From the NCBI RefSeq assembly GCF_046119375.1, contig NW_027362767.1, positions 51,460,001 through 51,524,000 on the forward strand: DNA of 64,000 nucleotides, read 5' to 3'. This DNA comes from Phyllobates terribilis. Its lineage: Eukaryota. The notes under the pieces were generated by a model. It made no database searches. It was not told the DNA's origin and saw only the letters and a program-made list of their open reading frames with translations. A program made the translations under genes and the position numbers. Positions 3,495-37,224 of the stretch are shown in pieces (the first letter of the stretch is position 1; each line of letters starts with the position of its first letter).

Positions 3495-3715
3495 TCTTTT
3501 CTACACTTCATACATGTAAATACGGAGCTAGAGATGATTTGCACCTATTGATTTTGGGTGGGGTTGGAAAAGTTGACTTTGTGGGGGTCAGACTCTCCGC
3601 TCTACATGGCTTTCCACAGCAGTCCATGTTTCCATGATGGAAATAGTAAATCCTGGGAACGTGGCTGGTTGTTGAATCGGGGGGGTTAAAACTAGAGTTG
3701 GTGCAAAACAATATG

Positions 3716-3963: not shown

Positions 3964-4417
3964 TTAATCATTTTGCACAACAGCTGGAGTCTGGCAGGTC
4001 GCTGCTCTCTCTCATATTTTGGCCCCAGCTCAGTGGGGAGTCGTGTGACGTGAATTCATTGTAATATCCTGAACTGACAGCATCAGATGTGGCTATGACC
4101 TGCGCTTTGGTATTGTGGAGGTCAGGCTGGTGTCACCAGTTTCACCCATCTGTCAATCACGGTTCGGCTGTGAGTCTCCCGAATCAAACACAACGGCCTC
4201 AGATAGGACTATAGGGCTGCGGAGTTTGGAATCTGCTGCCGGAGAATGTCGGGATAAGATGGATGAGAGAATCCCACCCCAATATTGTCACGTGAATCTG
4301 CCCTACACCCATCTGCCTGTAAGAAGTATTGATTTGAAAAGTAATGTAATTACTATGTAATATTTTTGCGCTTTTAATGTGGGAAACCTATTCCTCCTTG
4401 CAAATAATTTGGTAAGA

Positions 4418-4455
4418 AATAAAACTAAGAAATTTTAACTCCATGGTTCTTTATT
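4418..4455. terminator. Convergent polyadenylation signals: NEMF AATAAA (+, 4418-4423) and KLHDC2 AATAAA (-, 4450-4455)
   Basis: Each is the first canonical hexamer I found downstream of its stop codon (NEMF TGA 3494; KLHDC2 TGA 4690). Confidence 0.5.
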
Positions 4456-4689
4456 TTCATTTTACAGAGGGGCTCATTTTAATTTGAGTCCAAATTGTAC
4501 ATTACAATAGGAGTGAACGGCGCCCCCTTAAGGCTGCAGGAAATGGAGCTAAATAACGGCTCCCACATAATGAACAAGAACGTGAATTCTCCACAAGTAT
4601 TAAACATATTTACAGTAAAATAAGATCCAACGGGAAAAAAAAATCCTAAAAAACACAAACAGTGACTTGTAAACAGCAGGGTCTGCGCT

Positions 4690-16600: not shown

Positions 16601-19600
16601 TATTCATGGCTGTGTTTTTAGGCAAGACTGTGAGTGAGCCGATTCCCTTGGCTGAGAAGCAACCCCACACATGAATGGTTTCAGGATGCTTTACAGTTGG
16701 CATGAGACAAGACTGGTGGTAGCGCTCACCTCTTCTTCTCCGAATAAGCTGTTTTCCAGATGTCCCAAACAATCGAAAAGGGGATTCATCAGAGAAAATG
16801 ACTTTGCCCCAGTCCTCAGCAGTCCACTCCCTGTACCTTTTGCAGAATATCAGTCGGTCCCTGATGTTTTTTTCTGGAGAGAAGTGGCTTCTTTGCTGCC
16901 CTCCTTGAAACCAGCCCTTGCTCAAAGAGTCTCCACCTCACAGTGCGTGCAGAAGCACTCACACCAGCCTGCTGCCATTCCTGAGCAAGCTCAGCACTGC
17001 TGGTAGTCCGATCCCGCAGCTGAAACAGTTTTAAGATACGGTCCTGGCGCTTGCTGGTCTTTCTTGGGCGCCCTGGAGCCTTTTTGACAACAATGGAAGC
17101 TCTCTCCTTGAAGTTCTTGATGATGCGATAGATTGTTGACTGAGGTGCAATCTTTGTAGCTGCGATACTCTTCCCTGTTAGGCCATTTTTGTTCAGTGCA
17201 ATGATGGCTGCACGTGTTTCTTTAGAGATAACCATGGTTAACTGAAGAGAAACAATGATACCAAGAACCAGCCTCCTTTTAAAGTGTCCAGTGATGTCAT
17301 TCTTACTTAATCATGACTGATTGATCGCCAGCCCTGTCCTCATCAACACCCACACCTGTGTTAATGGATCAATCGCTAAAACGATGTTAGCTGCTCCTTT
17401 TAAGGCAGGACTGCAATGATGTTGAAATGTACTTTGGGGGTTAAAGTTCATTTTCTGGGCAAATATTGACTTTGCAAGTACAGTAATTGCTGTTAAGCTG
17501 ATCACTCTTTGACATTCAGGAGTATATGCAAATTGCCATTACAAAAAATGAAGCAGTAAACTTTGGAAAAATTACTATTTGTCTCATTCTCAATACTTTT
17601 GTCCATGACTGTAGGTCCCCAATATTCAGGTAAATGTCCCCAATAGGCAGCATAGGTCCCCAATAGGCAGCATAGGTCCTCAATGGGCAGGTAAATGTCC
17701 CCAATAGGCAGAATAGGTCCTCAATAGGCAGGCTGTTCCCCCCTTATAATGCCCCATGCAGGATGTCCCTTTCTCCAACCATATAATGCCCCATGCAAGA
17801 TATCACTCCCCTGTCTTTATAATGCCCCATGCAGGATGTCACCCCCCCCCCATATAATGCCCCATGCAGGATGTCACCCCCCCCCATATAATGCCCCATG
17901 CTGGATGTCACCCCCCCCTATATAATGCCCCATGCAGCATGTCACCCCCCCCCAAATAATGCCCATGCCCCATTCAGGCTATCACTCCCCTGTTGTTATA
18001 ATGCCCCATGCAGGATGTCACCCCCTCCCCCCATATAATGCCCCATGCAGGATATCACTCCCCTGTCTTTATAATACCCCATTCAGGATGTCACCCCCCC
18101 ATATAATGCCCCTTGCTGGATGTCACCCCCCCATATAATGCCCCATGCTGGATGTCACCCCTCATAACGCCCGATGCACCATGTCACCCCCCATATTATG
18201 CCCCATGCAGGATATCACTCCCCTGTCGTTATAATGCACAATGCAGGATATCACCCCCCTCTCTTTATAATGCCCCATGCAGCATGTCACTCCCCCACAT
18301 AATGCCCCATGCAGGATGTCACCTCCCTCATATTATGCCCCATGCAGGATGTCACCCCCATATAATGCCCCATGCAAGATGTCCCTTTCTCCCACCATAT
18401 AATGCACCATGCAGGATATCACCCCCTCTCACCTGCTGCAGCTGCTCGGGTCCGGACTCCAGCGTCTTCCCGCTCGGCGCTGCCTGTGACGGCTCAGGGG
18501 AGGGTGCGGTGTAAAGCCGTCACCGCACCCTCTGACCTGAGACGTCACAGGGAGCGCACAGCAGGAAGACAGCGGATCTGCGGAGGCACGGGGAGAGGGA
18601 AGTATCCGGCTGCCAGGGCCCTGAGCAAGCGGGAGGGAGCGGGCGCTGACACCGCTCTCCTCCGCCCACAGCCCGGCGGGCCGCATAAAAATCCTCCACG
18701 GGCCAGATGTGGCCCGCGGGCCGTAGTTTAAGGACCCCTGGTCTAGACTTTTAGCTGAGAATCTGTGCTACAGTAAATTTATCACTTAAACATGAGCCAT
18801 GTATGAGGGAGTCGGAGGTGTGGAGTCAGTGTCATGGAAATTGAGGAGTCGGAGGTTGGGCTTACCGACTCCATGGTCCTGCTTTACACTATAATGACTT
18901 TAGGATAATACTGGATCCGATGGGTGCGCAGTTATCCGGGAACATAATTACACTAATCCACACGGATCACTGAAGCCAATATTCACCTGATGACTGCTCT
19001 GTTGCTGAGCACAAAACTAATTTGAGACTTTTTATACCCTCCAATAAAGAACCTTTATTCTGCAGCGTTCCCTGGATCCTGCATCACCCTAAAGTCGTTA
19101 CACTATCAAGATAATCAATTAACTTGGTCAGGACAGAAGTGCAGCAGTTATCCCAGAGAGCGACACCACCGGGAACTCTGAACTACACCCATAGTCCTTC
19201 CAACATTTCCCCATCATTAGTAGATGAACCATAACAGAGATAGATGTGCTCGTGTGTGGACCCCTCTCCCCATCATAAGCCAAATCCAGAAACAGTAGTG
19301 AATACTGATACACCTACTCCAAAAGAGGTTTCATCAAACTCAAATGTCCCGATTGGGTCGTCTTCATAATAACCGTATCCGCCAAAGTAGATAAGCCTGG
19401 AAGAAAGATAAGAGCCATGACAGCGTCTGCACAGACAGCGGCACTGGGCGAAGGTAACGCTGCAGTCACTCGTCCTTGTGACGTCCATTCATTTCTCACA
19501 CAGCACAAGGACCCACAGAGTTTCACTAAAAATGGATTTGTCTCCGGTCCATGAGGCTCAGAGCAGGTCCTATCCTCATCTGTTTTCTGGATCAGACCCG

Positions 19601-22600
19601 GCCATTAAAGTCTATGGGGATCGAAGTAAAACAGAAGACAGGCTGTGTACTACAGTTTTCCATCAGTTTTTTAACGGATCCATTGGAAAGAGTCAATGGA
19701 TAAAAAAAGCCTCAGACAGTTTATACCTGCTGCAGTGAATAAAACAGAGGAGGAACAAATGGATGCAACTAGGAAGACTCCAGAGGGGCAAAAAGACAAA
19801 AACAAAATTGTCCATTCCTCTAGGATGTGACACTCACATGTGTGAATGCAAGCGAAGACAGAAAAAAAAACACCCAAAACTTCTAGTTAAACGTCTTGTA
19901 TGGAGAAGGTAAAACTATGTGAAAAATAAGAGAAAAGAAGAAGTCGCATCCAAAATGAAATAATGACATTTAAAGCAATGCTGACACTCACTTGTACTGA
20001 TGTGCCCACACCCCCAGTTTATCCTTGGGAGATGGCGGAGGTCCTTTACACTCTATCATTTCCCAGAAAAGATCACCGTCTCTAGAGTTCAGGTTTAACA
20101 TGAAAAGCTGGAAAGAAACAGATAATAACAAAAATAATCCATATATAATCAAGTTAACTGTCCCACAATGCTCCAGGTTAAAGACTCACCATGTTTGTGT
20201 TCCCATGGGCATGGTGACCTCCGAACAGGTACAGCACGCCTTCCACGCAGGTGGCACAGCTGCCGGACATGGATGGGGGGATGCTTCCCTTGGTTTTCTT
20301 TCTTTGCCTGTAATATCATGGCACATTATAGAAGAACCACAGATAATATAAATTTAATTAAGGTAAAAAAAATGGAGAAATTAAGTACAACACTGGCTTG
20401 TTTTTGCACCATGAGTTGTAGTTTTGAATTACACCATTAAATTTTACCATAATCTACTGAAAGGAGAGGGTGGGGAAATTGAAGTGCGGTAAAATAGTGA
20501 AAAAAAACACATTCTGTCATTGATTGTTATAGGAGTTTGTGATTAAGGTATTCAATGTGCGGGAATAGGATCCTCCAGTTTATATATAATATGTTTTTTA
20601 TTAACATTTCACTTGAGCCTGAATCTGTATTGTATGCTGAATATAGTGAAAATCGTGGTCTTCTATCATGGCTGCTATGGTAATCCATCAGCACAACAAC
20701 TCCTTGCTGGGGAGCTGATGGGTCCCTGAGCTGACGCCAAAGCAGGACTTAGATGTCACTTAATCGCTGCTGCCAGTGGCATGTAAATGGTTAAACAGCA
20801 GCGATAGGAGCAAGATGTACAACACCCACCCTCGGCTCCTGAGCCCGCTCCATACGCCCAACCCCACTCCATGACATAATAGTACATTATGGAGCGTTAA
20901 GGTGTTAAAGGGGTTGTTAATCTGCAGCTGACACCTGCCTACAAACACCCCAAAAATAGATTTTTTTTTTTCATTATATAGGAAATTAAATGGCGTCATT
21001 AAAAACTACACAACAAAACAAGGCCTCCTGTGGCCTCACCTGTCGCTTTTGGAAGACTGAGAGCAAAAAAAATCTCACAAAATAAAGTTAAAAAATGAGA
21101 ACTGGAAAATGTTTCGAAACAACAATGAATCGAAATGGAAATCTAGTGTCAAATATCATTACACGGGGTCCTAGAAATACCCACCTTAACTCCTAGGGAC
21201 CAGGAGCCGCAGGAAAGAAGGTAACAAAGGTAGGGGCACCTCTATTCTACTGTGCCCCCAGCTCAAGTAAGGTGGCAGCAGGTCTATATGTGGCCATATA
21301 CATGCATGTTCTCAATGGGGAGAGGGGAGTAAGCCAACGTCAGACCTGCGTCCTATAGCCCCGTGGAAAATAAGATACCAAGCCCAATGCTTCAACATCC
21401 TCAACCACTGCTGTCCACCGACATCTGTCTTTTTACGGGTTTTCTAGTGTGGGTCATTTTTTCGCAGGAGGTAACTGGTGCCGACACCGTTACACAAGTC
21501 TCTGCAGCTTTGTTAGGTCGTATGATCATCAGGTATCGTGCACAGATCTATGTGGGGGTCTTAATGGCATTGGCTCCACTCGCCATCAATGTGAAGGTGA
21601 TCTGTACTAGACGACTCCCATAACGAGAGTCAGAACACACCTCACAGTCATCAGAACCAAAGACCGGGATAAAGTCCAACCGGGCAGACGGCCTCACTCC
21701 GCCCTCTACACCAATATACCTAAATATTTCTGGCAGCTAAAGGGTTGATTAAGATTTAAGATCACTATGCTTAGGAATAGTCACTAAAAACAGATTAGTT
21801 GGGGTCTGATACCTGGCAGCCCAGTGATCGGCTGGTAGCCGGATTACAGATTATAGCTGAACTCCGGTAACTCAGCTCCCATTACAGTTAATGGCAGCTG
21901 GGCTGCAGTACCAGAGAACGGCCACAACAGTGTATGGAGCGGAGCTTTCTGGCTTCCTACACTATATGTATACGACGGCTTTAGCAGCCCAGCTTACGAG
22001 TCGTGGCACAGATAGAAATCAAGTCACGAAAAAAACATTTAAGAGACTACAACTGGCAATACCAATTTATTTCACAGTTCTGATTTACACTCACCAGGTT
22101 ACTCCATTTACCATGTCGTAAATCCAGATCTCATCCCGCGGCAAGTAGAAATCATAAAATCCTCGAACAGGAGCATTCTGCAAAATAAAGAAATAAATGT
22201 GAATTCATTCATTATGGATACAGAATCAATGCCTACATTCTTTGCAGAATCCTGGGTGTGTGAATCAGGTCTTAACCTGTCAGCACACCGGCAGGTGACA
22301 CGGGGCCGAGACCGGAGGACCGCCGCCGATCCGGGAGCCGAGTGTAGAGTGTATTCATTTACACACGGGGTTTATTAAGGAGAATATGAAACCCTTTTAA
22401 CCCTTATATGCTGCTGTAAAATATGAAGCAGGACCTCAGGTCATGTAATTATGGCAGACCACCATGGGACCCTTGTGAGGTCCTCAGCTGTCATTGTAAA
22501 GGATTGCAACCAACGTCTGGGCATCCAGATTGTACAGCGCCCCGCAATGCAAACTTCTACTAAAGTGCTGCCATAGAAGGCAATACTAGAGAGGGATATC

Positions 22601-24342
22601 CGGATAATTCTCCTGGTGAAGAAGAAGGCGGCACTTTAGAATAAATCCCCTTAATGGCGGGCGTAAAAGCATGTACAGGCGGTCGTTAAGGGGTCAATTT
22701 AGTATGTGTGTTTTTGTAAAGGTGCCTAAATTAGTAGATCCCAGACCTGTAAACCGTGACGGACTGGGGTGCCAAGGGCCACAAGCAACCGACTCCACTT
22801 ATCAGCTACATGCAAATGAGACTTTATCCTCAATCACAAATGTGTATAACAATGATCTGGGTAGATTGTTACATGAATAAGATGCCGTCTTTATCTGTAC
22901 ATAGTGATTCAGTATACAGTGCCAAGTACTGCTCTTATAAGAGGGTGGTGGCCCACCGGAGGATTCTCCTGTTCTCCTGTCGGGCAGTCCAGGCCTGACT
23001 GTAAACCAAAACAGACGGTTTGGCCCAGAGTCTGAAGTGTTTATTTGGAATAAAAGAAAGGAAGTCAAAGCCCCAATATACAAAAGGGATGGTGTCTCAC
23101 TAGGGTATGTCATCACTTTATGACATTTGGGCTCCAGGGGTTGGTTCCTGTGAATAAGAATTTGCAGTACTGATCTAGTGCGGCATCCACCTTCACGGCC
23201 TTTCCCTGAGGAGCAGCAGGAGGGGCCGTGTGTAGTGAAGAGAATAGTGACGGGGTTGGGCTCATCTTCATAAATGGCTATTGTCGGATAGAGCTTATAC
23301 ATACAAGCAATCAGGCAATTTACTGCTTGTTAAAATTGTCAGCCGTTCTGTAGATAAACACTTTTCTTTTGTTAACAGTTTCTGGCCTTGGGAGACCGAC
23401 CACCGCTGCTAGACAGCAGGACAAGCGCAGCGCTTCCAGGCCCTTTTCTGTTCAGCTTGTAAGCACTATTGTGAAGCTGTTGGAGCGCGCTGTTACCACC
23501 TAATCCTGGCCAGCTTCCAGGCACAGCTTACAACCAAACAGCAGTGGTGGTCGGTCTCCTAGGCAACAAGCTATAAACAACAGACTTCAATATCTCAAGA
23601 ACGGCTGCAAATGTAAATAAGCTGTAAATTGCAAAAGTGCTTGTACAAACTCTGACTAGATTATTCTGTGGAGATGGAAAATCCCTTTAAGTAAGTCTCC
23701 TAAAATTCGATCAGGGGTATTAGGAGAAAGTAGGAGCGGGAAAAGGAATAACAGGCCATTTCTTTTTTTCTTGTAAACCTTTCCTGGCTGCCATTTTGAA
23801 TCCCCCCAAAAAATCGTCCTTGTCAATTAGAATGGAGTCAGTCATTTCCGGCGTGAGCACAAGGCTCATACAGGAACCATACATTTATTGTCATTAATAA
23901 GTCAGTTGGAGATAACCTGAGATGCCGCAGCTGGCGACCCGAGCTGAGCTCAAGCACCAGCACCAGCACCAGCACCGCCCAGTGCTGGGGAACTCCTGGG
24001 AAGTGAACAGGACAGGCCTCCTTTGTATAAAAAGCAGTAGCCCCTGGCAACCAATCAGCTCTCTTCTTTCATTTTTCAACTTGCCTTCAAAAAATGAGAG
24101 CAGGAATCTGATTGGTCGCTCTGGACAACAGCCCAGCTTTTGCCAGCTGTCACCTTGTATCCTCCCCACACAAACATTCGGATTCCGTCGGTGACAGCCA
24201 CGTGCCCGCTCCGCTCTGCCGGCAAACTGTTATCCACGCCGGCTCCCGCCTCCTCCATCTCCTCATCCTCGTCTTCTTCATCATCCTCGTCGATCTCTTC
24301 TTCCACTAGTTCAACAGGGGCATCTTCATTGCCGTCCGCCAT
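4690..24342 (-). CDS. KLHDC2: Kelch domain-containing protein 2 (CRL2 C-degron substrate receptor), complete, 13 exons, 418 aa
   Basis: Exons (minus strand) 24154-24342, 22095-22177, 20190-20307, 19992-20107, 19318-19396, 13206-13289, 13021-13101, 12873-12931, 12102-12211, 8806-8878, 5977-6064, 5406-5458, 4690-4813; total 1257 nt, open, all GT-AG. Starts MADGNED, has kelch GG-containing repeats (PAERSGH...[38 protein letters not shown]...[23 protein letters not shown]...FGGCANNLL) and ends [12 protein letters not shown]. Confidence 0.97.
9015..9062 (-). ncRNA. Candidate minimal type I hammerhead ribozyme (variant core), copy 1
   Basis: Minus strand reads GCGATGTTT-TTGAAAA-A-GGCCT(ATCC)AGGTC-GAAAC-GTC-ATGTATCGC. 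Stem I is GCGAT/ATCGC, stem II is 5 bp, stem III is the palindrome AC/GT (dimer type) and the cleavage triplet is GUC. The core deviates from CUGANGA (UUGAAAA). Confidence 0.4.
10460..11316. mobile_element. PIF/Harbinger-type MITE (857 bp) inserted in the right arm of the Penelope-like element
   Basis: TIRs GGGTATCTGCACACGATGC / GCATCGTGTGAACTCAGCC. 3-bp TSD TTA (10457-10459 and 11317-11319). The empty site is preserved in the left arm (9057-9072). Confidence 0.85.
11320..11367 (+). ncRNA. Candidate minimal type I hammerhead ribozyme (variant core), copy 2
   Basis: Identical 48-nt motif to the 9015-9062 copy, on the plus strand. Confidence 0.4.
12315..12490. repeat. 34-bp tandem repeat, about 5 copies, KLHDC2 intron 8
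   Basis: Unit TGCGGACGCAGGCGGTTGTAGGTGGCTAGGCGCG repeated head to tail. Confidence 0.95.
14361..15939 (-). mobile_element. Tc1/mariner DNA transposon, full length (1579 bp), copy 1
   Basis: About 40-bp perfect TIR CAGTGCCTACAAGTAGTATTCAACCCCCTGCAGATTTAGC at both ends, TA TSD (14359-60, 15940-41) and an internal transposase. Confidence 0.96.
14566..15589 (-). pseudogene. Tc1 DD34E transposase, disrupted
   Basis: MGKTKE...paired-like HTH N-terminus; catalytic [15 protein letters not shown] and [11 protein letters not shown] motifs. In-frame TGA at 15368-15370 and a frameshift near 15225. Confidence 0.93.
16041..17611 (-). mobile_element. Tc1/mariner DNA transposon, full length (1571 bp), copy 2 (different family)
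   Basis: TIR CAGTCATGGCCAAAAGTTTTGAGAATGA with a slightly diverged right copy (ends 17611). TA TSD (16039-40, 17612-13). It interrupts an AGGCAGCATAGGTCCCC motif that recurs intact at 17645 onward. Confidence 0.95.
16218..17235 (-). pseudogene. Tc1 DD34E transposase with a single +1 frameshift in an A7 run
   Basis: ORFs 16816-17235 ([14 protein letters not shown]...GRPRKTS...[10 protein letters not shown]) and 16218-16925 (NIRDRL...FSDESPF...FQHDGAPCH...[11 protein letters not shown]) join if one base of the T7 run at 16867-16873 is removed, giving 338 aa. Confidence 0.92.
17730..18430. repeat. Degenerate minisatellite of about 33-36 bp inside MITE B
   Basis: Repeats of ATAATGCCCCATGCAGGATGTCACCCCCCCC with variants. 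Confidence 0.9.
23325..23690. mobile_element. MITE-like foldback element in KLHDC2 intron 1 (same family as 49440-49790)
   Basis: Inverted arms CCTTGGGAGACCGACCACCGCTG / CAGTGGTGGTCGGTCTCCTAGG and outer CAGCCGTTCT / AGAACGGCTG. Confidence 0.6.
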
Positions 24343-24471
24343 CCCCAAAACTCGTCACAGCCTCGAGTCGCGGATGTTATGCGTAGAGGTCGCATGTAAA
24401 TAACAGAACTCAGAGCGCCATCTTTAATAAGGGCAGAGGAGTAAAAAGCCTCTGAGAGCCGAAAGAGGTCC

Positions 24472-24536
24472 AGCGCCCTCTGGCGGCAGCCGCTGTTACC
24501 ACTACGTAAGAGGTCTAGAGCCCTCTGGCGGCAGCT
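24472..24536 (-). promoter_or_regulatory. Two tandem CTCF-like motifs in the KLHDC2 promoter region
   Basis: Direct duplication of G(C/A)GCCCTCTGGCGGCAGC. The reverse complement GCCGCCAGAGGGCGC resembles the CTCF core CCGCNAGGGGGCGC. 130-195 bp upstream of the ATG at 24342. Confidence 0.45.
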
Positions 24537-24756
24537 GCTGTTACTGTTGAACTTTACCAGACGAGGAGACACCAAATATGTTTTTTTTTCTATGTTTTTC
24601 GTTTGTGTTCAGAAGTAAAAGAGGGGTTGAGTTAGTCTGATTGTTCTTAACATTTTTTAAAACATTTTATAACAGATGACTTGTGTCTGTCGTTTCCCTA
24701 GGGGACTTGAACTTGTGATCATTTGTACCATGTCCTAAAATAGTTCAGTATCGTAG

Positions 24757-25978
24757 TGTAGCACCCCGAGGACTCGGCTGCTGCAGGAGTGTTGCACCTC
24801 GAACCAGAGGTGTGATATTCCACTCCCGGGTAAGGATGGAGTGTGGAGCGGGGCTCAGTTAGCTGCATACACTACACTCACCCCATTTCCGGGGGACAGA
24901 TCTACGGTACTCCCACCAGATAGATGTGCAGGTACGACAGCGTCTGTCCCTGGCTGGAGTGGGAAGGGGGGAGGAATATCCCAGTGGTGTAGGAGCAGAG
25001 AGGGGAGGGACTCTGGGCATAGGTAGGAGCCCATTGGGTGCTAGTCACCTGGGCTCGGGTGTCAGAAGGAAGTATAAAAAGGTGGGCACCATCTAGGAGG
25101 AGGGGGGAGTTCAGTCTGGAGGAGAAGCAGAGAGAGTTCAGCCAGAGAGGGCTGACAGGGAGCTGTGGCTCAGTCCGGGCCCAGCTCCGGAACAGGAACA
25201 CAGGGAAAGGCCCAGAGACGCAAGTAAAGAGGGAACCCTAAGATCCCACGAGATAACGGGTGAAGGGTTGGCCGAGTAGGGTACCGGATCCCAAACTGGT
25301 GGAGGCCAATTATCCTTAGCCAGGAACCGGAGGTCGTGGTCAAGTCTTGGCGCGACCCCTCGCCATATCCACCAGGAAGGCACGCCATATAGGGTCAGGG
25401 AAATCGGGAGAGGTTTCGCCGCCAGAAGGCCTGAGGAAGCCGGACAGAGGTGGGTCCCTGGTGGGGACGGCCAGTAGAGAGGAAGAGAAGGGAGCTCTGA
25501 ACCACGCTCTGGAATTGCCTGGGAGTTGGCCGAGTCCCGCACCTGGTGGGCGCAGCACGGCTCGGGTGGTCACTCTCGGCCGAAGTGACCGGAGCAACAA
25601 CTGTGAGTAAAGCTTTGGAAACTGCACCACACGTCTCTGAGGTTCCTTGTCGCACCAGCACCATTAGTGCGGGAACTACCACAACACCACTATCATCATT
25701 ACCCGCTTCACCTGCTGCCCTGAGGCTATACCTCTCCCGTTGGGGGTTGTTCCAACTACGCTGCACAACCATACCACCGGCCTCAGCGGTCTGCCCTGCA
25801 GCGGCGGTTTCATAACCGCATTCAACGGGTGGCGTAGTCGAACACTATAACCTCTTATACTAAATTCTGCCACTTGGTTTGACACCCTGGGCACGGACCG
25901 GATCGTCGCCACGAGGACTACTACCCCTATCAGATCCGGCTCCGGGTATTCCCCGAGCATGGCCCAGGGGGCGCGTCA
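24757..25978 (+). repeat. 5' LTR
   Basis: Direct repeat of 28371-29592 with 4 C/T differences seen by eye. Contains ATTGG (25033-25037), TATAAAAA (25073-25080) and AGTAAA (25606-25611). Confidence 0.96.
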
Positions 25979-27749
25979 ACTTTGGCGTAGTCGGCAGGAT
26001 CTCGTGCCCGCAACCACCGGGTACTGCGTGCCTGAAGAAAAGTTCACATGTACCTCAAAAAGAAGTCTCCTGCCAATTCCAGAGGATTCCCGCCATCGGA
26101 CGCCATCTCGGGTCGTTTCCCGCCGTTTGCCCGCCATCCGCGGAGTTTCCCGCCATCAGGGGACGACTCCCGCCATCTTGGACGTTTTCCCGCCTTGGCA
26201 GAGCGGACGCCATTGTGGGGGTGCCAGAGGGTGGCAAGAGGCCACCTCCCATCGTGGGCATGGTCCCAGAGTGGCGCCAAAGGAGGAGACCGCCCCCACC
26301 AGCCGAGACTGCAACAATGGAGATGCCATCAGAGTGGGGGGGCTGCCCCTGAAACTGACTGTCGCTAAGTTGCCCCGGGGCCACTCCCAATGGGGGCGGA
26401 TGGGGAACAAAACTGAGGGGCTGGGCGCGGCCTGGATCAATCTGGACAGACCGCACCCGGAGATGGAGGAAGCATCGAGCAGTGCCGACCCCGTGGTCCG
26501 GAGCCTGCTGCAGGCCGCCACCCCAGACAGCCTGGTGGAGATCCTGGCACAGCTCCCCAGAGAACGGGAGCGGGCACAGGCTGCGCTGGAGGACTTGGCC
26601 CGGAAGATGGCCCGAGCGCAGCAGGAAGCGCTGGCCGAATGGAGAAGGGAGATGGCCCGGCAGGCTGGAACCCGCCAGCAGGGGGCGCTACCCGCAACGT
26701 GGAGCATGTCTGCCCCTGAGGATGGTGCAGGAGGGACGAAGGCCGGAGACGCCGCCGCGGAGGGAGCCGCAGGGATGGAAGCAGGTAATGGGGACGTCAT
26801 TACCCCGAGCCGAGTAGCCGTAAGCCTGCCCCAGCTCCCCGTCGCAGAGCCCGAAGTCCTACTCACCGCGCCCGTTGCCGCACCGCCACTGCCCCCAACT
26901 AGGCCTCAAGCGGCAGGAGCCGCGGTCACGCCCCCTTTCACGCCCCGCCCCTCGACCCTGAGCGCGGCAAAACAGGAAGTGCCACCGGCCTGGTCGCAAG
27001 GCCTGGTGAACCCGGGCGCCGCTGCCCCCACAGCGCCCTCCACCTCCACAGTGCCACCCCTGGGCGCAGATCTCTTCGCGCAACATACCAGCCCGGACGG
27101 GCTGCCCTTCGTGTGACCACCGGAGTACATCAACCCCCGACTCCGGAGGGAACGGCCCCTGTGTGAGCCTCTGATCCCGGCCCCGGCGCCCGCCAAAATT
27201 GCTCCGCTCCCGTTAGAGGACGCCCAATTTGAATGGGATCCGACCGGTGAGAACCTCATGGGGTTCACCCAGGAGACCCGGGCGGACGCAGCCCGGCGTG
27301 AGGAGTGCTGCCGTCAACAGCTGGAGGTCTTTGGAAGAGAACGGCGAGAGAGGCGGATCCGCGAGGAACAGCTGCAGGCCCGAAGCGCGGAACAGAAGCG
27401 TAGGGCCCGACAAAACCCCCGTACGGCCCACGGTCCCCGCGCCAACGGGACCGTAATAAAGTTCCAGCTAGAGCATGGCTGGGGCTTTATCCGGGACCAC
27501 CGAGCTCCCGGCGACGTCTTTGTTACCCGCAGGGATGTCGAGAGCCACCTACCTGAAGGACACCGTGGACGTGATCTCTACCCGGGTGACGTGGTCACCT
27601 TCACCCGGCATGAGTGTGCCAAGGGGCCGTACGCCCTTCACGTACACCGGCTAACTGAGGAGGAGTTGCAGTACGAGGAAAGCCAAGAGGACCCGGACGG
27701 GTCTGAAGACTACCCTCAGGAGGGAGCACAGAGAGGACATAGCTACTGA
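25959..27749 (+). CDS. LTR-element ORF: coiled-coil and Pro/Ala-rich region followed by a C-terminal cold-shock domain and acidic tail; one internal in-frame TGA at 27114-27116
   Basis: ORFs 25959-27116 and 27258-27749 share a frame, and 27117-27257 is open (47 codons). CSD at about 27441-27653: GTVIKFQLEHGWGFIRDHRAPGDVFVTRRDV...LYPGDVVTFTRHECAKGPYALHV, with RNP1 (GWGFI) and RNP2 (DVFV) like YBX1/CspA. The true start may be ATG 26400 or 26463. Confidence 0.75.
25983..26000 (+). promoter_or_regulatory. Primer-binding site complementary to the 3' end of tRNA-Ser
   Basis: TGGCGTAGTCGGCAGGAT, separated from the LTR terminal CA by a 4-nt spacer, is the reverse complement of ATCCTGCCGACTACGCCA, the 3' 18 nt of vertebrate tRNA-Ser(AGA/TGA) as I recall it. 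Confidence 0.9.
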
Positions 27750-28361
27750 AGGGAAGTAGCGTGAACGGAGGACTGTATATAGTTACCCGTTAGGGTACCC
27801 GACCTGCTGCCAATTGAACTGTGGTCCCCGTTGGGACTGTTTTGAAACTGTTGACTGGTTTGCCCTAATCCCTAACCTGGTTGGGGACTGAGAACAGCCA
27901 CCCTTTGTTTTATTGGGCCGAGGACTGTGAGCGGCCATATCCCTTGTACATAGTTGCGCTTCCTTAAGCGCCCCTTACTGGTTTTATAAGAACTGTTTTT
28001 CTACCTCGGAATTAGTGACTGTTGCACTTTACCTGGTCACAAGTTGCGCCGTGGCCAGAGATCAAGAATGTGTTTGTGAAGAACGTTTTATATGAGAATG
28101 TTTTACTTGAAAAAGTTTTATATTGAAAGTTTAAATGCTGCTAGAATAATAATGTAAAAGTTATCTGTGATGTTCTATAATGTGTTATATGCTAAAAGAG
28201 TTCCGGTAGTTTTGACCAGTAACGTTAAAGAGAAAAGGACCTCCCATCAAGGGATGATTGAAAAGTTGATATATCTTATATGTAAGTGTACACTTTAAAA
28301 TTTTTGTATGTTTACTATTGTCTTTGCTCTTTTCCAGCCCGAGGACGTGCTGTGATTTACC

Positions 28362-28370
28362 AGGGGGGAA
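28362..28370 (+). promoter_or_regulatory. Polypurine tract
   Basis: AGGGGGGAA immediately 5' of the TG of the 3' LTR. Confidence 0.9.
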
Positions 28371-29592
28371 TGTAGCACCCCGAGGACTCGGCTGCTGCAG
28401 GAGTGTCGCACCTCGAACCAGAGGTGTGATATTCCACTCCCGGGTAAGGATGGAGTGTGGAGCGGGGCTCAGTTAGCTGCATACACTACACTCACCCCAT
28501 TTCCGGGGGACAGATCTACGGTACTCCCACCAGATAGATGTGCAGGTACGACAGCGTCTGTCCCTGGCTGGAGTGGGAAGGGGGGAGGAATATCCCAGTG
28601 GTGTAGGAGCAGAGAGGGGAGGGACTCTGGGCATAGGTAGGAGCCCATTGGGTGCTAGTCACCTGGGTTCGGGTGTCAGAAGGAAGTATAAAAAGGTGGG
28701 CACCATCTAGGAGGAGGGGGGAGTTCAGTCTGGAGGAGAAGCAGAGAGAGTTCAGCCAGAGAGGGCTGACAGGGAGCTGTGGCTCAGTCCGGGCCCAGCT
28801 CCGGAACAGGAACACAGGGAAAGGCCCAGAGACGCAAGTAAAGAGGGAACCCTAAGATCCCACGAGATAACGGGTGAAGGGTTGGCCGAGCAGGGTACCG
28901 GATCCCAAACTGGTGGAGGCCAATTATCCTTAGCCAGGAACCGGAGGTCGTGGTCAAGTCTTGGCGCGACTCCTCGCCATATCCACCAGGAAGGCACGCC
29001 ATATAGGGTCAGGGAAATCGGGAGAGGTTTCGCCGCCAGAAGGCCTGAGGAAGCCGGACAGAGGTGGGTCCCTGGTGGGGACGGCCAGTAGAGAGGAAGA
29101 GAAGGGAGCTCTGAACCACGCTCTGGAATTGCCTGGGAGTTGGCCGAGTCCCGCACCTGGTGGGCGCAGCACGGCTCGGGTGGTCACTCTCGGCCGAAGT
29201 GACCGGAGCAACAACTGTGAGTAAAGCTTTGGAAACTGCACCACACGTCTCTGAGGTTCCTTGTCGCACCAGCACCATTAGTGCGGGAACTACCACAACA
29301 CCACTATCATCATTACCCGCTTCACCTGCTGCCCTGAGGCTATACCTCTCCCGTTGGGGGTTGTTCCAACTACGCTGCACAACCATACCACCGGCCTCAG
29401 CGGTCTGCCCTGCAGCGGCGGTTTCATAACCGCATTCAACGGGTGGCGTAGTCGAACACTATAACCTCTTATACTAAATTCTGCCACTTGGTTTGACACC
29501 CTGGGCACGGACCGGATCGTCGCCACGAGGACTACTACCCCTATCAGATCCGGCTCCGGGTATTCCCCGAGCATGGCCCAGGGGGCGCGTCA
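28371..29592 (+). repeat. 3' LTR
   Basis: Same length as the 5' LTR, ends GCGCGTCA and is followed by TSD GTAG. Confidence 0.96.
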
Positions 29593-29806
29593 GTAGTATA
29601 TGGGCACAATAACGTTCTCGTATAAAGCCTTTTATGCGGCTTTATAGGTGCATAAATACGGCAGCACCAGGGGTCCTCAGAATGCCCCCGGGGGCCACAT
29701 TTACACATCAGCGCTCTGTGACTGCGGGGGCATCTAAACGGTTAATCAGCAGTGATCAGCGCTTGCTCAGGTCGCTGCTTTTAGAGGCAGATGCTGGAAG
29801 TATTAG

Positions 29807-32167
29807 AGGAGTACAGGTAGAGGGGAGTACGAGTACAGGTAGAGGGGAGTACGAGTACAGGGGGAGTGCGTGTACAGGTAGAGGGGAGTGCGTGTACAGG
29901 TAGAGGGGAGTACGAGTACAGGTAGAGGGGGGAGGTGTACAGGTAGAGGGGAGTACGAGTACAGGGGGAGTGCGTGCACAGGTAGAGGGGAGGTGTACAG
30001 GTAGAGGGGGAGTACGAGTACAGGGGGAGTGCGTGTACAGGTAGAGAGGGGAGGTGTACAGGTAGAGGGGAGTACGAGTACAGGTAGAGGGGGAGGTGTA
30101 CAGGTAGAGGGGGAGTACGAGTACAGTGGGAGTGCGTGTACAGGCAGAGAGGGGAGGTGTACAGGTAGAGGGGGGGTACGAGTACAGGTAGAAGGGGGAG
30201 GTGTACAGGTAGAGGGGGAGTACGAGTACAGGTAGAGGGGAGAGGTGTACAGGTACAGGGGGAGTGCGTGTACAGGGGGAGTGCGTGTACAGGCAGAGAG
30301 GGGAGGTGTACAGGTAGAGGGGGGAGTACGAGTACAGGTAGAGGGGGGAGGTGTACAGGTAAAGGGGGAGTACGAGTACAGGTAGAAGGGGGAGGTGTAC
30401 AGGTAGAAGGGGGAGTACGAGTACAGGTAGAGGGGAGTACGAGTACAGGTAGAGGTGTACAGGTAGAGGGGGAGTACGAGTACAGGGGGAGTGCGTGTAC
30501 AGGTAGAGAGGGGAGGTGTACAGGTAGAGGGAGTACAAGTACAGGTAGAGGGGAGGAGGTGTACAGGTAGAGAGGGAGTACAAGTACAGGTAGAGGGGAG
30601 TACGAGTACAGGTAGAGGGGGAGGTGTACAGGTAGAGGGGGAGTACGAGTACAGGGGGAGTGCGTGTACAGGCAGAGAGGGGAGTACGAGTACAGGTAGA
30701 GGGGGAGTACGAGTACAGGTAGAGGGGGGAGGTGTACAGGTAGAGGGGGAGTACGAGTACAGGTAGAAGGGGAGGTGTACAGGTAGAGGGGGAGTACAAG
30801 TACAGGTAGAGGGGAGTACGAGTACAGGTAGAGGGGGGAGGTGTACAGGTAGAGAGGGAGTACAAGTACAGGTAGAGGGGGAGGTGTACAGGTAGAGAGG
30901 GAGTACAAGTACAGGTAGAGGGGGAGGTGTACAGGTAGAGGGGAGTACGAGTACAGCTAGAAGGGGGAGGTGTACAGGTAGAGGGGGAGTACGAGTACAG
31001 GGGGAGTGCGTGTACAGGTAGAGAGGGAGTACAAGTACAGGTAGAGGGGAGTACGAGTACAGGTAGAGGGGGAGGTGTACAGGTAGAGGGGGAGTACGAG
31101 TACAGGGGGAGTGCGTGTACAGGTAGAGAGGGAGTACAAGTACAGGTAGAGGGGAGTACGAGTACAGGTAGAGGGGGGAGGTGTACAGGTAGAGGGGGAG
31201 TACGAGTACAGGTAGAGGTGTACAGGTAGAGGGGGAGTACGAGTACAGGTAGAGGGGGAGGTGTACAGGTAGAGGGGGAGTACGAGTACAGGTAGAAGGG
31301 GAGGTGTACAGGTAGAGGGGGAGTACAAGTACAGGTAGAGGGGGGAGGTGTACAGGTAGAGAGGGAGTACAAGTACAGGTAGAGGGGGAGGTGTACAGGT
31401 AGAGGGGAGTACGAGTACAGGTAGAAGGGGGAGGTGTACAGGTAGAGTACGAGTACAGGTAGGGGGGGAGGTGTACAGGTAGAGGGGAGTACGAGTACAG
31501 GTAGAAGGGGGAGGTGTACAGGTAGAGGGGGAGTACGAGTACAGGTAGGGGGGGAGGTGTACAGGTAGAGTACGAGTACAGGGGGAGTGCGTGTACAGGT
31601 AGAGAGGGGAGGTGTACAGGTAGAGGTGTACAGGTAGAGGGGAGTACGTGTACAGGTAGAGGGGGGAGGTGTACAGGTAGAGGTGAGTACGAATACAGGT
31701 AGAGGAGAGGTGTACAGGTAGAGGGGAGTACGAGTACAGGTAGAGGGGAGTACGAGTACAGGTAGAGAGGAGTACATATACAGGTAGAGGGGGAGTACGA
31801 GTACAGGTAGAGGGGGAGTACGAGTACAGGTAGAGGGGGAGTACGAGTACAGGTAGAGGGGGAGTACGAGTACAGGGGGAATGCGTGTACAGGTAGAGAG
31901 GGGAGGTGTACAGGTAGAGGGGGAGTACGAGTACAGGGGGAGTGCGTGTACAGGTAGAGAGGGGAGGTGTACAGGTAGAGGGGAGTACGAGTACAGGTAG
32001 AGGGGAGTACGAGTACAGGTAGAGGGGAGTACGAGTACAGGTAGAGGGGAGTACGAGTACAGGTAGAGGGGGGTGTACAGGTAGAGAGGAGTATGAGTAC
32101 AGGTAGAGGGGAGGTGTACAGGTAGGTTGAGGGGAGGAGTACAGGTAGAGTGGAGGAGTACAGGTAG
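29807..32167. repeat. Purine-rich modular satellite, block 1
   Basis: Shuffled modules GTACAGGTAGAGGGG(G)A, GTACGA/GTACAA, GGT and GTGCGT. The plus strand is strongly G/A biased. Confidence 0.95.
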
Positions 32168-32545
32168 GCATTCAACGGGTGGCGTAGTCGAACACTATAA
32201 CCTCTTATACTAAATTCTGCCACTTGGTTTGACACCCTGGGCACGGACCGGATCGTCGCCACGAGGAGTACTACCCCTATCAGATCCGGCCAGGGTATTC
32301 CCCGAGCATGGCCCAGGGGGCGCGTCAGTAGTATATGGGCACAATAACGTTCTCGTATAAAGCCTTTTATGCGGCTTTATAGGTGCATAAATACGGCAGC
32401 ACCAGGGGTCCTCAGAATGCCCCCGGGGGCCACATTTACACATCAGCGCTCTGTGACTGTGGGGGCATCTAAACGGTTAATCAGCAGTGATCAGCGCTTG
32501 CTCAGGTCGCTGCTTTTAGAGGCAGATGCTGGAAGTATTAGAGGA
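32168..32545 (+). repeat. Tandem-duplicated copy of the 3' LTR tail (161 bp) plus about 215 bp of flank
   Basis: Matches 29432-29810 with about 3-4 differences. Repeats the LTR end GCGCGTCA (32327) and TSD GTAG. Confidence 0.93.
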
Positions 32546-35500
32546 GTACAGGTAGAGGGGAGTGCGTGTACAGGTAGAGGGGAGTGCGTGTACAGGTAGA
32601 GGGGAGTACAAGTACAGGTAGAGGGGAGTACAAGTACAGGTAGAGGGGAGTACGAGTACAGGTAGAGGGGAGTACGAGTACAGGTAGAGGGGAGTACAAG
32701 TACAGGTAGAGGGGGGAGGTGTACGAGTACAGGGGGAGTGCGTGCACAGGTAGAGGGGAGTACAAGTACAGGTAGAGGGGAGTACAAGTACAGGTAGAGG
32801 GGGAGTACGAGTACAGGGGGAGTGCGTGTACAGGTAGAGGGGAGTACGAGTACAGGGGGAGTGCGTGTACAGGTAGAGAGGGGAGGTGTACAGGTAGAGA
32901 GGGAGTACGAGTACAGGTAGAGGGGAGTACAAGTACAGGTAGAGGGGAGTACGAGTACAGGTAGAGGGGAGTACGAGTACAGGTAGAGGGGAGTACGAGT
33001 ACAGGGGGAGTGCGTGCACAGGTAGAGGGGAGGTGTACAGGTAGAGGGGAGTACGAGTACAGGTAGAGGTGTACAGGTAGAGGGGGAGTACGAGTACAGG
33101 TAGAGGGGGAGTACGAGTACAGGTAGAGGTGTACAGGTAGAGGGGGAGTACGAGTACAGGGGGAGTGCGTGTACAGGGGGAGTACGTGTACAGGCAGAGA
33201 GGGGAGGTGTACAGGTAGAGGGGGGAGTACGAGTACAGGTAGAGGGGGGAGGTGTACAGGTAGAGGGGGAGTACGAGTACAGGTAGAAGGGGGAGGTGTA
33301 CAGGTAGAGGGGGAGTACGAGTACAGGTAGAGGGGAGTACGAGTACAGGTAGAGGTGTACAGGTAGAGGGGGAGTACGAGTACAGGGGGAGTGCGTGTAC
33401 AGGTAGAGAGGGGAGGTGTACAGGTAGAGAGGGAGTACAAGTACAGGTAGAGGGGAGGAGGTGTACAGGTAGAGAGGGAGTACAAGTACAGGTAGAGGGG
33501 AGTACGAGTACAGGTAGAGGGGGAGGTGTACAGGTAGAGGGGGAGTACAGGCAGAGAGGGGAGGTGTACAGGTAGAGGGGGAGTACGAGTACAGGTAGAG
33601 GGGGAGTACGAGTACAGGTAGAAGGGGAGGTGTACAGGTAGAGGGGGAGTACAAGTACAGGTAGAGGGGAGTACGAGTACAGGTAGAGGGGGGAGGTGTA
33701 CAGGTAGAGAGGGAGTACAAGTACAGGTAGAGGGGAGTACAAGTACAGGTAGAGGGGAGTACGAGTACAGGTAGAGGGGGGAGGTGTACAGGTAGAGAGG
33801 GAGTACAGGCAGAGAGGGGAGGTGTACAGGTAGAGGGGGAGTACGAGTACAGGTAGAGGGGGAGTACGAGTACAGGTAGAAGGGGAGGTGTACAGGTAGA
33901 GGGGGAGTACAAGTACAGGTAGAGGGGAGTACGAGTACAGGTAGAGGGGGGAGGTGTACAGGTAGAGAGGGAGTACAAGTACAGGTAGAGGGGGAGGTGT
34001 ACAGGTAGAGAGGGAGTACAAGTACAGGTAGAGGGGGAGGTGTACAGGTAGAGGTGTACAGGTAGAGGGGAGTACGAGTACAGCTAGAAGGGGGAGGTGT
34101 ACAGGTAGAGGGGGAGTACGAGTACAGGGGGAGTGCGTGTACAGGTAGAGAGGGAGTACAAGTACAGGCAGAGAGGGGAGGTGTACAGGTAGAGGGGGAG
34201 TACGAGTACAGGTAGAGGTGGAGTACGAGTACAGGTAGGGGGGGAGGTGTACAGGTAGAGTGGGAGTACGAGTACAGGTAGAGGTGTACAGGTAGAGGGG
34301 GAGTACGAGTACAGGTAGAGGGGGAGTATGAGTACAGGTAGAAGGGGAGGTGTACAGGTAGAGGGGGAGTACAAGTACAGGTAGAGGGGGGAGGTGTACA
34401 GGTAGAGAGGGAGTACAAGTACAGGTAGAGGGGGGAGGTGTACAGGTAGAGAGGGAGTACAAGTACAGGTAGAGGGGGAGGTGTACAGGTAGAGGGGAGT
34501 ACGAGTACAGGTAGAAGGGGGAGGTGTACAGGTAGAGTACGAGTACAGGTAGGGGGGGAGGTGTACAGGTAGAGGGGAGTACGAGTACAGGTAGAAGGGG
34601 GAGGTGTACAGGTACAGGGGGAGTGCGTGTACAGGTAGAGAGGGGAGGTGTACAGGTAGAGGTGTACAGGTAGAGGGGAGTACGTGTACAGGTAGAGGGG
34701 GGAGGTGTACAGGTAGAGGTGAGTACGAATACAGGTAGAGGAGAGGTGTACAGGTAGAGGGGAGTACGAGTACAGGTAGAGAGGAGTACATATACAGGTA
34801 GAGGGGAGTACGAGTACAGGTAGAGTACGAGTACAGGTAGAGGGGGAGTACGAGTACAGGTAGAGGGGGAGTACGAGTACAGGGGGAGTGCGTGTACAGG
34901 TAGAGAGGGGAGGTGTACAGGTAGAGGGGAGTACGAGTACAGGTAGAGAGGAGGATGAGTATAGGTAGAGGGGAGGTGTACAGGTAGGTTGAGGGGAGGA
35001 GTACAGGTAGAGTGGAGGAGTACAGGTAGGTAGAGGGGAGGTGTACAGGTAGAGTGGAGTACAGGTAGATAGAGAGGAGGTGTACAGGTAGAGGGGGAGG
35101 TGTACAGGTAGGTAGAGGATTACAGGTAGAGGGGTACAGGTGGGTAGAGAGGTGTACAGGTAGAGTGGAGAGGAGGTGTACAGGTAGAGTGGAGGTGTAC
35201 AGGTAGGTAGAGGGGGAGGTGTACAGGTAGGTAGAAGGGAGGAGTACAGGTAGGTAGAGGGGAGGATTACAGGTAGAGGAGTACAGGTAGGTAGAGGGGA
35301 GGAGTACAGGTAGAGTGGAGGTGTACAGGTAGAAGGAAGGTGTACAGATAGGTAGATGGGAGGATTACAGGTAGAGGTGTACAGGTAGGTAGAAGGAAGG
35401 TGTACAGATAGGTAGAGGGGAGTAGGAGTACAGGTAGAGTGGAGGTGTACAGGTAGGTAGAGGGGAGGTGTGAAGGTAGAGGGGAGTATGAGTACAGGTA

Positions 35501-36230
35501 GAGGAGAGGTGTACAGGTAGAGGAGAGGTGTACAGGTAGGTAGAGGGGAGTACAGGTAGAGTGGAGGTGAACAGGAAGAAGGAAGGTGTACAGGTAGGTA
35601 GAGGGGTGGTGTACAGGTAGAGGTGTACAGGTAGATTGGAGGTGTACAGGTAGGTAGAGGGGAGGTGTACAGGTAGAGGGGAGTATGAGTACAGGTAGAG
35701 GTGTACAGGTAGGTAGAGGGGAGTACAGGTAGAGTGGAGCTGTACAGGTAGGTAGAGGTGTACAGGTAGAAGGAAGGTGTACAGGTAGGTAGAGGGGCGG
35801 TGTACAGGTAGAGGGGAGCTGTACAGGGGAGGTGTACAGGTAGAGGGGAGTATGAGTACAGGTAGAGGAGAGGTGTACAGGTAGAGTGGAGGTGTACAGG
35901 TAGGTAGAGGGGAGTACAGGTAGAGTGGAGCTGTACAGGTAGGTAGAGGGGAGGTGTACAGGTAGGTAGAGGGGAGGTGTACAGGTAGGTAGAGGGGAGG
36001 TGTACAGGTAGAAGGAAGGTGTACAGGTAGGTAGAGGGGTGGTGTACAGGTAGAAGGAAGGTGTACAGGTAGAAGGAAGGTGTACAGGTAGGTAGAGGGG
36101 TGGTGTACAGGTAGAAGGAAGGTGTACAGGTAGGTAGAGGGGTGGTGTACAGGGGGAGGTGTACAGGTAGAGGGGAGTATGAGTACAGGTAGAGGGGTGG
36201 TGTACAGGTAGGTAGAGAGGACATCTGCAC
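32545..36230. repeat. Purine-rich modular satellite, block 2
   Basis: Same modules as block 1, grading after about 35030 into GTACAGGTAGGTAGAGGGG / GAAGGAAGGT variants. Confidence 0.95.
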
Positions 36231-37224
36231 AGTAGACGGTAGGAGTACAGAGCCAGGAGGAGGCCTGGGTAGAGGGGTCTGTAGCTACACAGCCACATAT
36301 CTGACAGTCTGCAATTCACTGCGAGTGCCGAGGCCGTTCTATCAGAGACAGCATTAGAGTGTACCAGGTCCAGTATGGAGAACAATAAGTGGATGTTCAC
36401 ACTATACATTTTCATGGCATTTCTAGTTGTAATTTTCTAAAATCAGGATAACATCTTAGGAGTATAAATTGCTGCAAAACACCACATTTTTTACAGTGGA
36501 AAATAACGGGATGAAAAGAAAGTGCGACAAGACTGCGTAGTGTGAACATATCCTTATAGTGCAGGGAGTCTGGTGCTTTATTTCTCGGTGCACAGATCCG
36601 AGTGGCCGGCTGCTGCTATTCGCACAGAATCCGCTCGTGTCTCGGAAGTAGGAGGACGATCCTTCGCTTTTCTAAGATAGGAGACATAAACTTCTGATTT
36701 TCTGCGACTTTCTGGTGCGGGGACTTTGTGTATCTGCGACATGGTGGAAAGTCACGCCAATAGGTTTTCCTCCCTCCCTGCTGTCCTGCGGGACTACGTT
36801 TACCTACGTATCACACGTCTATCAGCCACCACAGCACCAATCATGGGGAGAGGACAGCGGTGGATGCTTCACACGTGGCGCCACCCTTCAATGTCTAAAT
36901 ATTTTTATTCATTATTGTACAATAAAAGTAACTAAACAGAAAACAACATTATCCCAGGGTGGAAATGTATCAGCAGTAACTCCGGGCGCTCTGCCAGAAA
37001 AACTCCTGTTAACCAAACAAGTCCTACTAGTCACGTCACCGCACCGCAGGGGTGGGCCGCTGACGTACGGCTGGGACACCCACCCGCCTGTAGGGGCCAA
37101 CTCCTGCTTATTATGGAGACCATTGTGGTCTCGCTGCAGGACCCCCAATGCTTCTATAACATATTTGATTTACATTTCTGAGACCACCCTTTACACAGCA
37201 GAGTGAACGCTTTATATCCTTAAA

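Follow-up and report, generated by a model that had tools for sequence, protein, structure and literature searches.

A putative satellite LTR retrotransposon family of the frog Phyllobates terribilis with a selected cold-shock domain as its cargo

Non-autonomous long terminal repeat (LTR) retrotransposons are usually either non-coding or encode Gag only. Here we describe an element at positions 24757–29592 of a 64,000-nt stretch of the genome of the frog Phyllobates terribilis (contig NW_027362767.1, positions 51,460,001 to 51,524,000; the whole stretch is called the window below), in which the product that has been kept and selected is instead a host-type RNA-binding domain, the cold-shock domain (CSD). 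The closest described systems are zebrafish BHIKHARI and crestin, chicken ENS-1/ERNI, and Xenopus 1A11 and Xretpos, which are likewise LTR-bounded, young and multi-copy, with one long open reading frame and no pol (PMC12067270, PMC4585706); plant TR-GAG, named in PMC13570524, belongs with these gag-only non-autonomous LTR elements. In the passages cited, Bik-1, Bik-2 and ERNI encode a capsid fold and the 1A11 product is Gag-like, whereas the conserved core of the window family is a CSD with no capsid found, and its helper is a Gypsy element rather than a retrovirus. Its copy numbers are also far larger than the 393 insertions given for Bik-2.

CSDs within LTR-bounded elements have a precedent in bird endogenous retroviruses with captured CSDs (46 reported, PMC12287698). 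Those elements are retroviruses by reverse transcriptase (RT) classification, with several independent captures in varied positions, and the passages concerned report no selection test; in the window family, by contrast, the pol-less elements have as their main cargo a CSD from a single clade, diverged and under selection. TRIM and LARD elements resemble it in depending on a helper, in keeping the primer-binding site (PBS), polypurine tract (PPT) and LTR ends, and in having tandem derivatives (locus L105 here) and deleted ones, but are defined as non-coding in the part of PMC13570524 that treats them, while the window family encodes a selected protein. Single-frame pol-less elements are known, and code for Gag where characterised. 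A pol-less, apparently capsid-less family with a selected CSD at its core is not described in the literature searched (subscription journals, Repbase and Dfam lay outside the search), and the accessible text of two frog transposable-element papers, one of them PMC12822217, does not mention "cold shock". The family may sit unnamed in repeat libraries.

The cold-shock domain, its copies and the selection on it

The original prediction had assigned the end of the frame to a CSD by eye, and this is confirmed by a match to PF00313 (Pfam scan: E 1.4e-7; 31.7 bits, cut-off 27) and by an AlphaFold2 model, which predicts a five-stranded OB barrel carrying RNP1 and RNP2. The best Foldseek match of this model is CspA (E 4.5e-7), with YB-1/YBX2 within the top 11; CRHSP-24 matches in fold (Z 10.8, rmsd 2.8, 86 aligned), and solved cold-shock and Y-box domains also matched at the sequence level. 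A protein atlas search gave nothing beyond bacterial CSD clusters at 0.84–0.85. Within the protein the order of parts is helical module, Pro/Ala-rich linker, Arg-rich helix (the coil, preceded by a conserved FEWDP-type motif), CSD and acidic tail, and most of it is predicted to be disordered: in the AlphaFold2 model of a natural sister frame (mean pLDDT 46) only the long helix (residues 448–492) and the CSD (501–571) are confident, with moderate helices at 174–249 and disorder elsewhere.

The domain resembles that of Y-box proteins (YBX1, YBX2/FRGY2) in fold, in the RNP1/RNP2 aromatics and in a long beta3-beta4 loop. Among 34 rows of the element clade, the RNP1 Phe is kept in 30 and the RNP2 aromatic in all 34, positions that touch nucleic acid in YB-1 according to the part of PMC7498358 cited, and the residue at the YB-1 K118 position is basic in 27. 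By alignment, the element CSDs keep two of the four main YB-1 aromatic contacts. Unlike Y-box proteins, the element carries its CSD at the C-terminus and its CSDs form a separate long-branch clade; identity to Y-box and other CSD proteins is only about 30%, and two binding positions, taken up below, are lost.

As proposed, the element belongs to a recently mobile, multi-copy, non-autonomous family with independent target-site duplications (TSDs). Its exact LTR-end/PBS junction occurs 32,301 times in the 10.57-Gb host genome (reversed control, 0), and a search with the interior gave 14,542 first-look candidates, with 40 scored places 85–100% identical. Perfect 4-bp TSDs are present at 25 of 28 distinct flanks, a set obtained from 46 loci tried, 39 of which yielded both ends, by dropping five that were poorly placed and merging seven that share one flank. 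The LTR pairs are 97.6–99.8% identical (median 99.1%; 27 of the first 30 loci), reaching 100% in L098. The seven merged copies (L023–L027, L029 and L030, on small contigs and contig C37) look like segmental amplification of one insertion, and head-to-tail arrays with a shared middle LTR (LTR-interior-LTR-interior-LTR) occur at L105, at L103 and at 582.55 Mb of contig C1, in families A and B (defined below). The first 20 exact junctions by position, a small and local sample from the first 5 Mb of C1, comprised 11 copies with a CSD, four with the Gag of the helper, four family copies with the CSD deleted and one unassigned. Scaled to the genome, this gives about 18,000 CSD copies with an exact junction (95% interval 10,000–25,000; from 11/20), by arithmetic roughly 1% of host DNA, and about 6,500 helpers (1,900–14,000; from 4/20), CSD copies exceeding helper copies by 11 to 4 in these position-ordered junctions.

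In supposing one such family, the original prediction understated the scale, as we see a radiation over several LTR backbones and several frog genera. Searching the genome with PF00313 and with a divergent CSD recovered the window element's own family A, with several subfamilies at 65–90% DNA identity; mini-elements (L092–L094) with a different PBS, in which the frame is ATG-CSD-tail only, the cargo being nothing but a CSD that has its own ATG; family B, which shares the PBS and 4-bp TSD but has an unrelated LTR of 1032 bp (486 exact junctions); and older types, of which L184 has its own LTR of about 620 bp and L183, L186, L187 and L161 have no recognised LTRs. By sequence, the clade is placed on at least three LTR backbones. 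Database relatives come from dendrobatoid and bufonid frogs (Ranitomeya variabilis, R. imitator, Anomaloglossus baeobatrachus and Bufo bufo), and one of them, P0014, also has the helical module and coil. The nearest database protein, from Phyllobates terribilis with 84% identity over the CSD, is probably from the same genome and hence not independent. Word-indexed protein searches gave only frog entries or general CSD proteins, and the profile-search relatives are the best 150 of 6990, crowded by multi-CSD proteins.

In a tree of 61 rows and 76 columns, with rows chosen by similarity to the element CSD clade, the 26 CSDs of element type group together (99/100) in a single clade, to which no Y-box, CSDE1 or other CSD belongs. 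This clade includes Bufo bufo entries annotated "Y-box-binding protein 2-A-like", which explains their names. Neither a grouping of the clade with Y-box (p-AU 0.54) nor one with CSDE1 (p-AU 0.51) is rejected. The length of the beta3-beta4 loop, 21–22 residues in 31/34 element rows, 9/10 Y-box-like, 1/12 bacterial-like and 0/4 CSDE1 rows, favours a Y-box source. P0125 and P0109, which fell in or next to the clade in a quick tree, were judged long-branch artefacts; P0109 left the clade in the 61-row tree, and P0125 was left out of that tree although it is among the 34 rows of the residue counts. Two gene models, P0037 (R. imitator) and P0159 (B. bufo), fuse an element CSD to host protease domains and are probably annotations running across an inserted element. 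The same searches met clustered intronless copies at L061–L068 (C1, 734.44 Mb; C2, 702.8 Mb) and a decayed fragment, L081, which from sequence likeness we take to be CSDE1/UNR-like and Y-box-like, respectively; these indicate that CSD genes of the host undergo retrocopying here.

The CSD could have been passive captured cargo, with high G+C or the avoidance of nonsense-mediated decay as the sole reason for its open frame. The interior has a G+C content of about 63%, bird retroviruses have captured CSDs repeatedly (PMC12287698, in the passages cited), and the leader-derived N-terminus, the 5' third of the frame, gives dN/dS mostly of 0.5–1.5. However, across copies the CSD is selected rather than passively carried. 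Between subfamilies (17 of 18 loci, L014 being dropped), dN/dS by the Nei-Gojobori method, from pairs that share history and with deep dS near saturation, is 0.06–0.20 for the CSD, 0.08–0.24 for the FEWDP-type motif and coil, 0.16–0.50 for the helical module and 0.56–0.68 for the linker, against 1.3–8.6 in the shifted-frame control over the CSD. As the subfamily loci had partly been picked by CSD similarity, the estimate was repeated on 11 position-ordered copies, with 0.07–0.08 for the CSD, 0.05–0.10 for the coil and 1.2–3.8 in shifted frames. Single CSD pairs give 0.03–0.22 (p 1e-6 to 2e-18), including 0.14–0.15 for the mini-elements and 0.09 for family B; the window copy against L002 gives a non-significant 0.62 (p 0.43). 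CSD and coil are thus under strong purifying selection: their amino acids are conserved while synonymous change is saturated and shifted frames exceed 1, and a single CSD clade extends over backbones and genera. For these two parts passive carriage is largely refuted, and as an account of the protein it is extremely improbable, though for the leader-derived N-terminus it is still possible.

A Gypsy helper and the role of the protein

The original prediction had postulated an autonomous Gypsy partner sharing LTR ends and PBS, and a search of the same genome found one among 20 loci fetched around integrase matches with long frames. L146, L148, L150 and L156 are one Gypsy family, of which L208 is a further copy. 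A PNMA-type vertebrate Gypsy/Ty3 element (Metaviridae), this helper has a coding order of PNMA-like Gag with a CCHC motif followed by protease (PR), RT, RNase H and integrase (IN): RVT_1, RNase H and rve score above the Pfam cut-offs, and PNMA (23.5 bits, cut-off 25), the protease and the CCHC knuckle below them. With the window family it has in common the LTR ends, U5 (70–73%), PBS with its inner copy, leader, patches of the 3' untranslated region, PPT and 4-bp TSDs. It differs in having gag and pol and in lacking a CSD (best E 0.92 in five loci), and its Gag is not similar to the element protein, whose frame occupies the place of the helper's gag-pol. All 150 helper RT matches considered are at least 94% identical, over 30 of them (by eye) in a 1389-aa open frame, and the LTR parts of L208 are 99.6% alike, so that the helper is both abundant and young. 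A different LTR element, L152, with gag, pol and env-like frames, also uses the family's PBS.

The window element itself lacks the gag and PR-RT-RNase H-IN that define an autonomous Gypsy/Ty3 element: neither six-frame translation of its 2392-bp interior nor Pfam scans show a protease, an RT, an RNase H, an integrase, a knuckle or any capsid family, as predicted. It has paired LTRs with a TSD, PBS and PPT, no pol in spite of many insertions, and a partner sharing its cis signals, and we read it as a broken copy of a satellite, that is, non-autonomous, LTR retrotransposon of the frog. From the common termini, element RNA is very probably packaged, reverse-transcribed and integrated by helper Gag and Pol.

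What, then, does the protein do? We favour, with a probability of roughly 0.55, an accessory mRNP factor that mimics Y-box proteins and partly prefers its own RNA. The analogy is with Y-box proteins, which package and stabilise oocyte mRNA (PMC7226217, in part), and with YB-1, which supports HIV RNA metabolism (PMC6040738, in part). The CSD and basic helix would bind single-stranded RNA, partly favouring the RNA that encoded them; the helical parts would oligomerise; and the coated element RNA would be stabilised in the germline and outcompete helper RNA for helper particles. With a cis preference that is only partial, derivatives without a CSD could spread as cheaters. All 30 bins of the stretch are covered by contigs from four sequencing runs, of which two were guessed to be of RNA; this cannot show transcription and is not used as evidence, and no run recorded as RNA contains the stretch.

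Several observations weigh against an accessory factor of this kind. The position of YB-1 W65 is Trp in only 1/34 rows and that of H87 is His in 2/34, so that binding could be weak or of another kind. Close to the last strand there is a new aromatic (30/34 rows), which may or may not make up for the loss. One CSD pair, L071 and L162, gives a dN/dS of 0.64 that is not significant (p 0.2). On the side of the helper, no single one of the five copies (L146, L148, L150, L156 and L208) shows gag and pol both fully open, and no helper for family B was found among 52 fetched loci. Most directly, the CSD-less family copies make up 4/20 sampled junctions, with differing breakpoints at short direct repeats, and the junction of L190, one such derivative, is spanned at no fewer than 39 other places. 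L190 is 96.5% alike to L211 and at most 90.4% alike to any CSD-bearing copy compared, and the remaining frame of the two is open with a dN/dS of 0.32 (p 6e-4). The spread of this lineage indicates that an element can do without the CSD in cis, and the apparent selection on its remaining frame that the helical module has a separate selected role. L209 and L210 carry the same in-frame join and may both be one duplicated locus. The packaging adaptor of the original prediction is still conceivable, but is weakened by the CSD-less sample copies and by the further places at which one such type occurs.

The persistence of both CSD-less and CSD-only derivatives could also be expected if the protein acted in trans against host control, competing with the host Y-box or small-RNA machinery, or shielding all RNAs of the clade, including those of the helper, from silencing or decay. 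One CSD clade on unrelated LTR backbones, and an altered binding surface that could suit a decoy, agree with this; a purely shared benefit, however, would not easily keep dN/dS near 0.1 over many lineages, and we regard action in trans as unlikely.

The helices at the N-terminus, the nucleic-acid-binding domain at the C-terminus and the location of the frame at the gag-pol place recall Gag, and the original prediction had suggested, as one option, a CSD replacing the zinc-knuckle nucleocapsid. The protein might co-assemble with helper Gag or be a degenerate Gag itself; selection on the helical module is seen also where the CSD is missing, and an extra RNA-binding domain is possible in PNMA-type Gags (PMC11011659, in the portion cited). 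However, capsid families gave no Pfam match among 15 members, a profile comparison with helper Gag gave a probability of 0.04% and hence no likeness, and the N-terminal model contains, at low confidence, some 75 helical residues, fewer than a capsid domain needs. A structure search with the whole protein matched the CSD region alone and no capsid, the low-confidence N-terminal part not having been searched separately. The values obtained for a predicted contact between the helical module and helper Gag, 0.00 and 0.28 where the mark is 0.34, are not used as evidence. The mini-elements, moreover, have the CSD alone. With no capsid partner detectable in the element, and a helper Gag that keeps its own CCHC motif, a nucleocapsid substitute is unsupported, and a Gag-like role in general is decidedly unlikely.

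The protein might also be kept for the benefit of the frog, through addiction or cooperation, as with the Gag of zebrafish Bik-1, a precedent among young single-ORF elements (PMC12067270, in the passages cited). The long persistence over frog families would fit. Against this, selection is seen between transposing lineages while single copies decay, as seen in the window copy and in the sampled CSD copies, only 5/11 of which are open from the PBS, and host benefit is in our judgement highly improbable.

Returning to the accessory factor, we tentatively extend it to a wider picture, the odds on which as a whole are somewhat below even. It is of an old satellite class of hyloid frogs, whose only conserved cargo would be a captured and re-tuned CSD, a Y-box mimic, by which pol-less RNAs outcompete a Gypsy helper in the germline; the CSD would have passed between unrelated LTR backbones and would in turn be exploited by CSD-less cheaters, in a three-tier system of helper, satellite and cheater that contributes to giant frog genomes. 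That a host-type RNA-binding domain has been kept and selected points to an unrecognised limiting step, be it RNA stability, storage or competition for particles, that can be won by a parasite's own protein. With full, CSD-only and CSD-less versions all occurring naturally, the question of why satellites outnumber helpers becomes directly testable. Surveys that count Ty3 pol frames, as described in part of PMC12822217, would miss the family.

Anatomy of the window copy and its surroundings

The cis signals of the window copy are collected in Table 1, and the LTR pair with TG..CA ends, GTAG duplication, PBS and PPT reported in the original prediction are all present, the LTRs differing at exactly 4 of 1222 bp. 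Two of its statements on coding capacity did not hold. It had read a single frame, which in this copy is broken by an in-frame TGA and, in comparison with the sisters L002 and L003, by two short deletions, one near 26126 and one near 26326; and it had begun this frame at 26400, whereas in sister copies an open frame of 601–702 aa starts at the ATG in the LTR end that matches window position 25959 and reads through the PBS.

Table 1. Features of the element in window coordinates
Feature	Position	Strand	Basis or remark
Left TSD, GTAG	24753..24756	+	sequence comparison
5' LTR, 1222 bp, TG..CA	24757..25978	+	LTR pair alignment
PBS start (first 11 nt) repeated within 5' LTR	25830..25840	+	second at 29444; common to helper
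ATG opening the ~600-aa frame in sister copies	25959..25961	+	frame crosses LTR end and PBS
PBS, tRNA-type primer	25983..26000	+	run-on copies
Leader, homologous to helper leader	26001..26130	+	sequence comparison
N-terminal helical module; predicted helices, three short and one of 40 residues	26487..26675	+	pLDDT about 45-72; dN/dS 0.16-0.50 between subfamilies
10-nt direct repeat flanking coil and CSD	27092..27101, partner 27692-27701	+	breakpoint repeat of the widespread in-frame CSD-less derivative
In-frame TGA breaking the window copy	27114..27116	+	translation
Arg-rich long helix (17 K/R, 10 D/E in 56 aa)	27273..27440	+	dN/dS 0.05-0.24
CSD	27441..27653	+	PF00313, fold search; dN/dS 0.03-0.22
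Acidic tail of 31 aa with 11 D/E, then stop	27654..27749	+	
3' untranslated region, short patches homologous to helper 3' UTR	27750..28361	+	
PPT	28362..28370	+	directly before 3' LTR
3' LTR, 4 mismatches against 5' LTR	28371..29592	+	LTR pair alignment
Right TSD, GTAG	29593..29596	+	sequence comparison

The 5' LTR has a TATA-like box at 25073, and the 879 nt from 25080 to 25958 contain no ATG, against a mean of 7.6 in shuffled sequences (0/1000 dinucleotide shuffles as low), so that the ATG at 25959 is the first after the box in this copy. Elsewhere in the family a copy has at most a few upstream ATGs, and the helper LTR is likewise ATG-poor. The phase in which the frame crosses the PBS is shared by family A, family B (L181, L182) and the Anomaloglossus protein P0108, which contains the translated PBS in frame. 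In family B it is open from deep within the LTR, yet dN/dS there is 0.81. An Rfam scan found no match within the element, and predicted RNA structure at the U5/PBS is not above that of shuffles (z -0.79).

The original prediction named the PBS as that of a serine tRNA. That the primer is a tRNA is borne out, since in 2/5 fetched run-on loci the family LTR end and PBS continue into T-loop and variable-arm sequence of a tRNA, as is expected of tRNA-primed reverse transcription; the serine isotype is our presumption. ARAGORN and Rfam identified a tRNA gene in 0/5 of these loci, and all five resemble element junctions. These are L212, L213, L214, L215 and L216, LTR-element junctions with the PBS extended by 15–30 nt into tRNA T-loop/variable-arm sequence, which suggests read-through into the primer. 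Genome-wide, the run-on patterns have 71 and 24 matches.

A second copy of the start of the PBS lies about 150 nt before the end of each LTR in family A and the helper (for example, L150, L156 and L208). In the element of L160 and in the mini-elements L092 and L094 this inner copy reads as the other PBS type, so that it seems to tend to change together with the PBS; it is not present in family B and is degenerate in L093. It may serve as a second contact for the primer or as a decoy for fragments of tRNA.

At 32168–32420 of the window, the last 161 bp of the 3' LTR and the right flank are repeated within a purine-rich minisatellite, a local duplication postdating the insertion. Among the loci fetched, L141–L145, L147, L149, L153, L155, L157 and L158 belong to young endogenous retrovirus families, in which the gag, pol and env-like frames are long and the LTR parts 98–100% alike. 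The remainder of the window contains transposase frames at 14566–15279 and 16218–17310, which by their motifs we take to be of Tc1/mariner type, tandem arrays at 57376–64000, 29780–36400 and 55085–56075, including a 28-bp minisatellite of more than 200 copies and the purine-rich minisatellite, and many MITE-like inverted repeats elsewhere.

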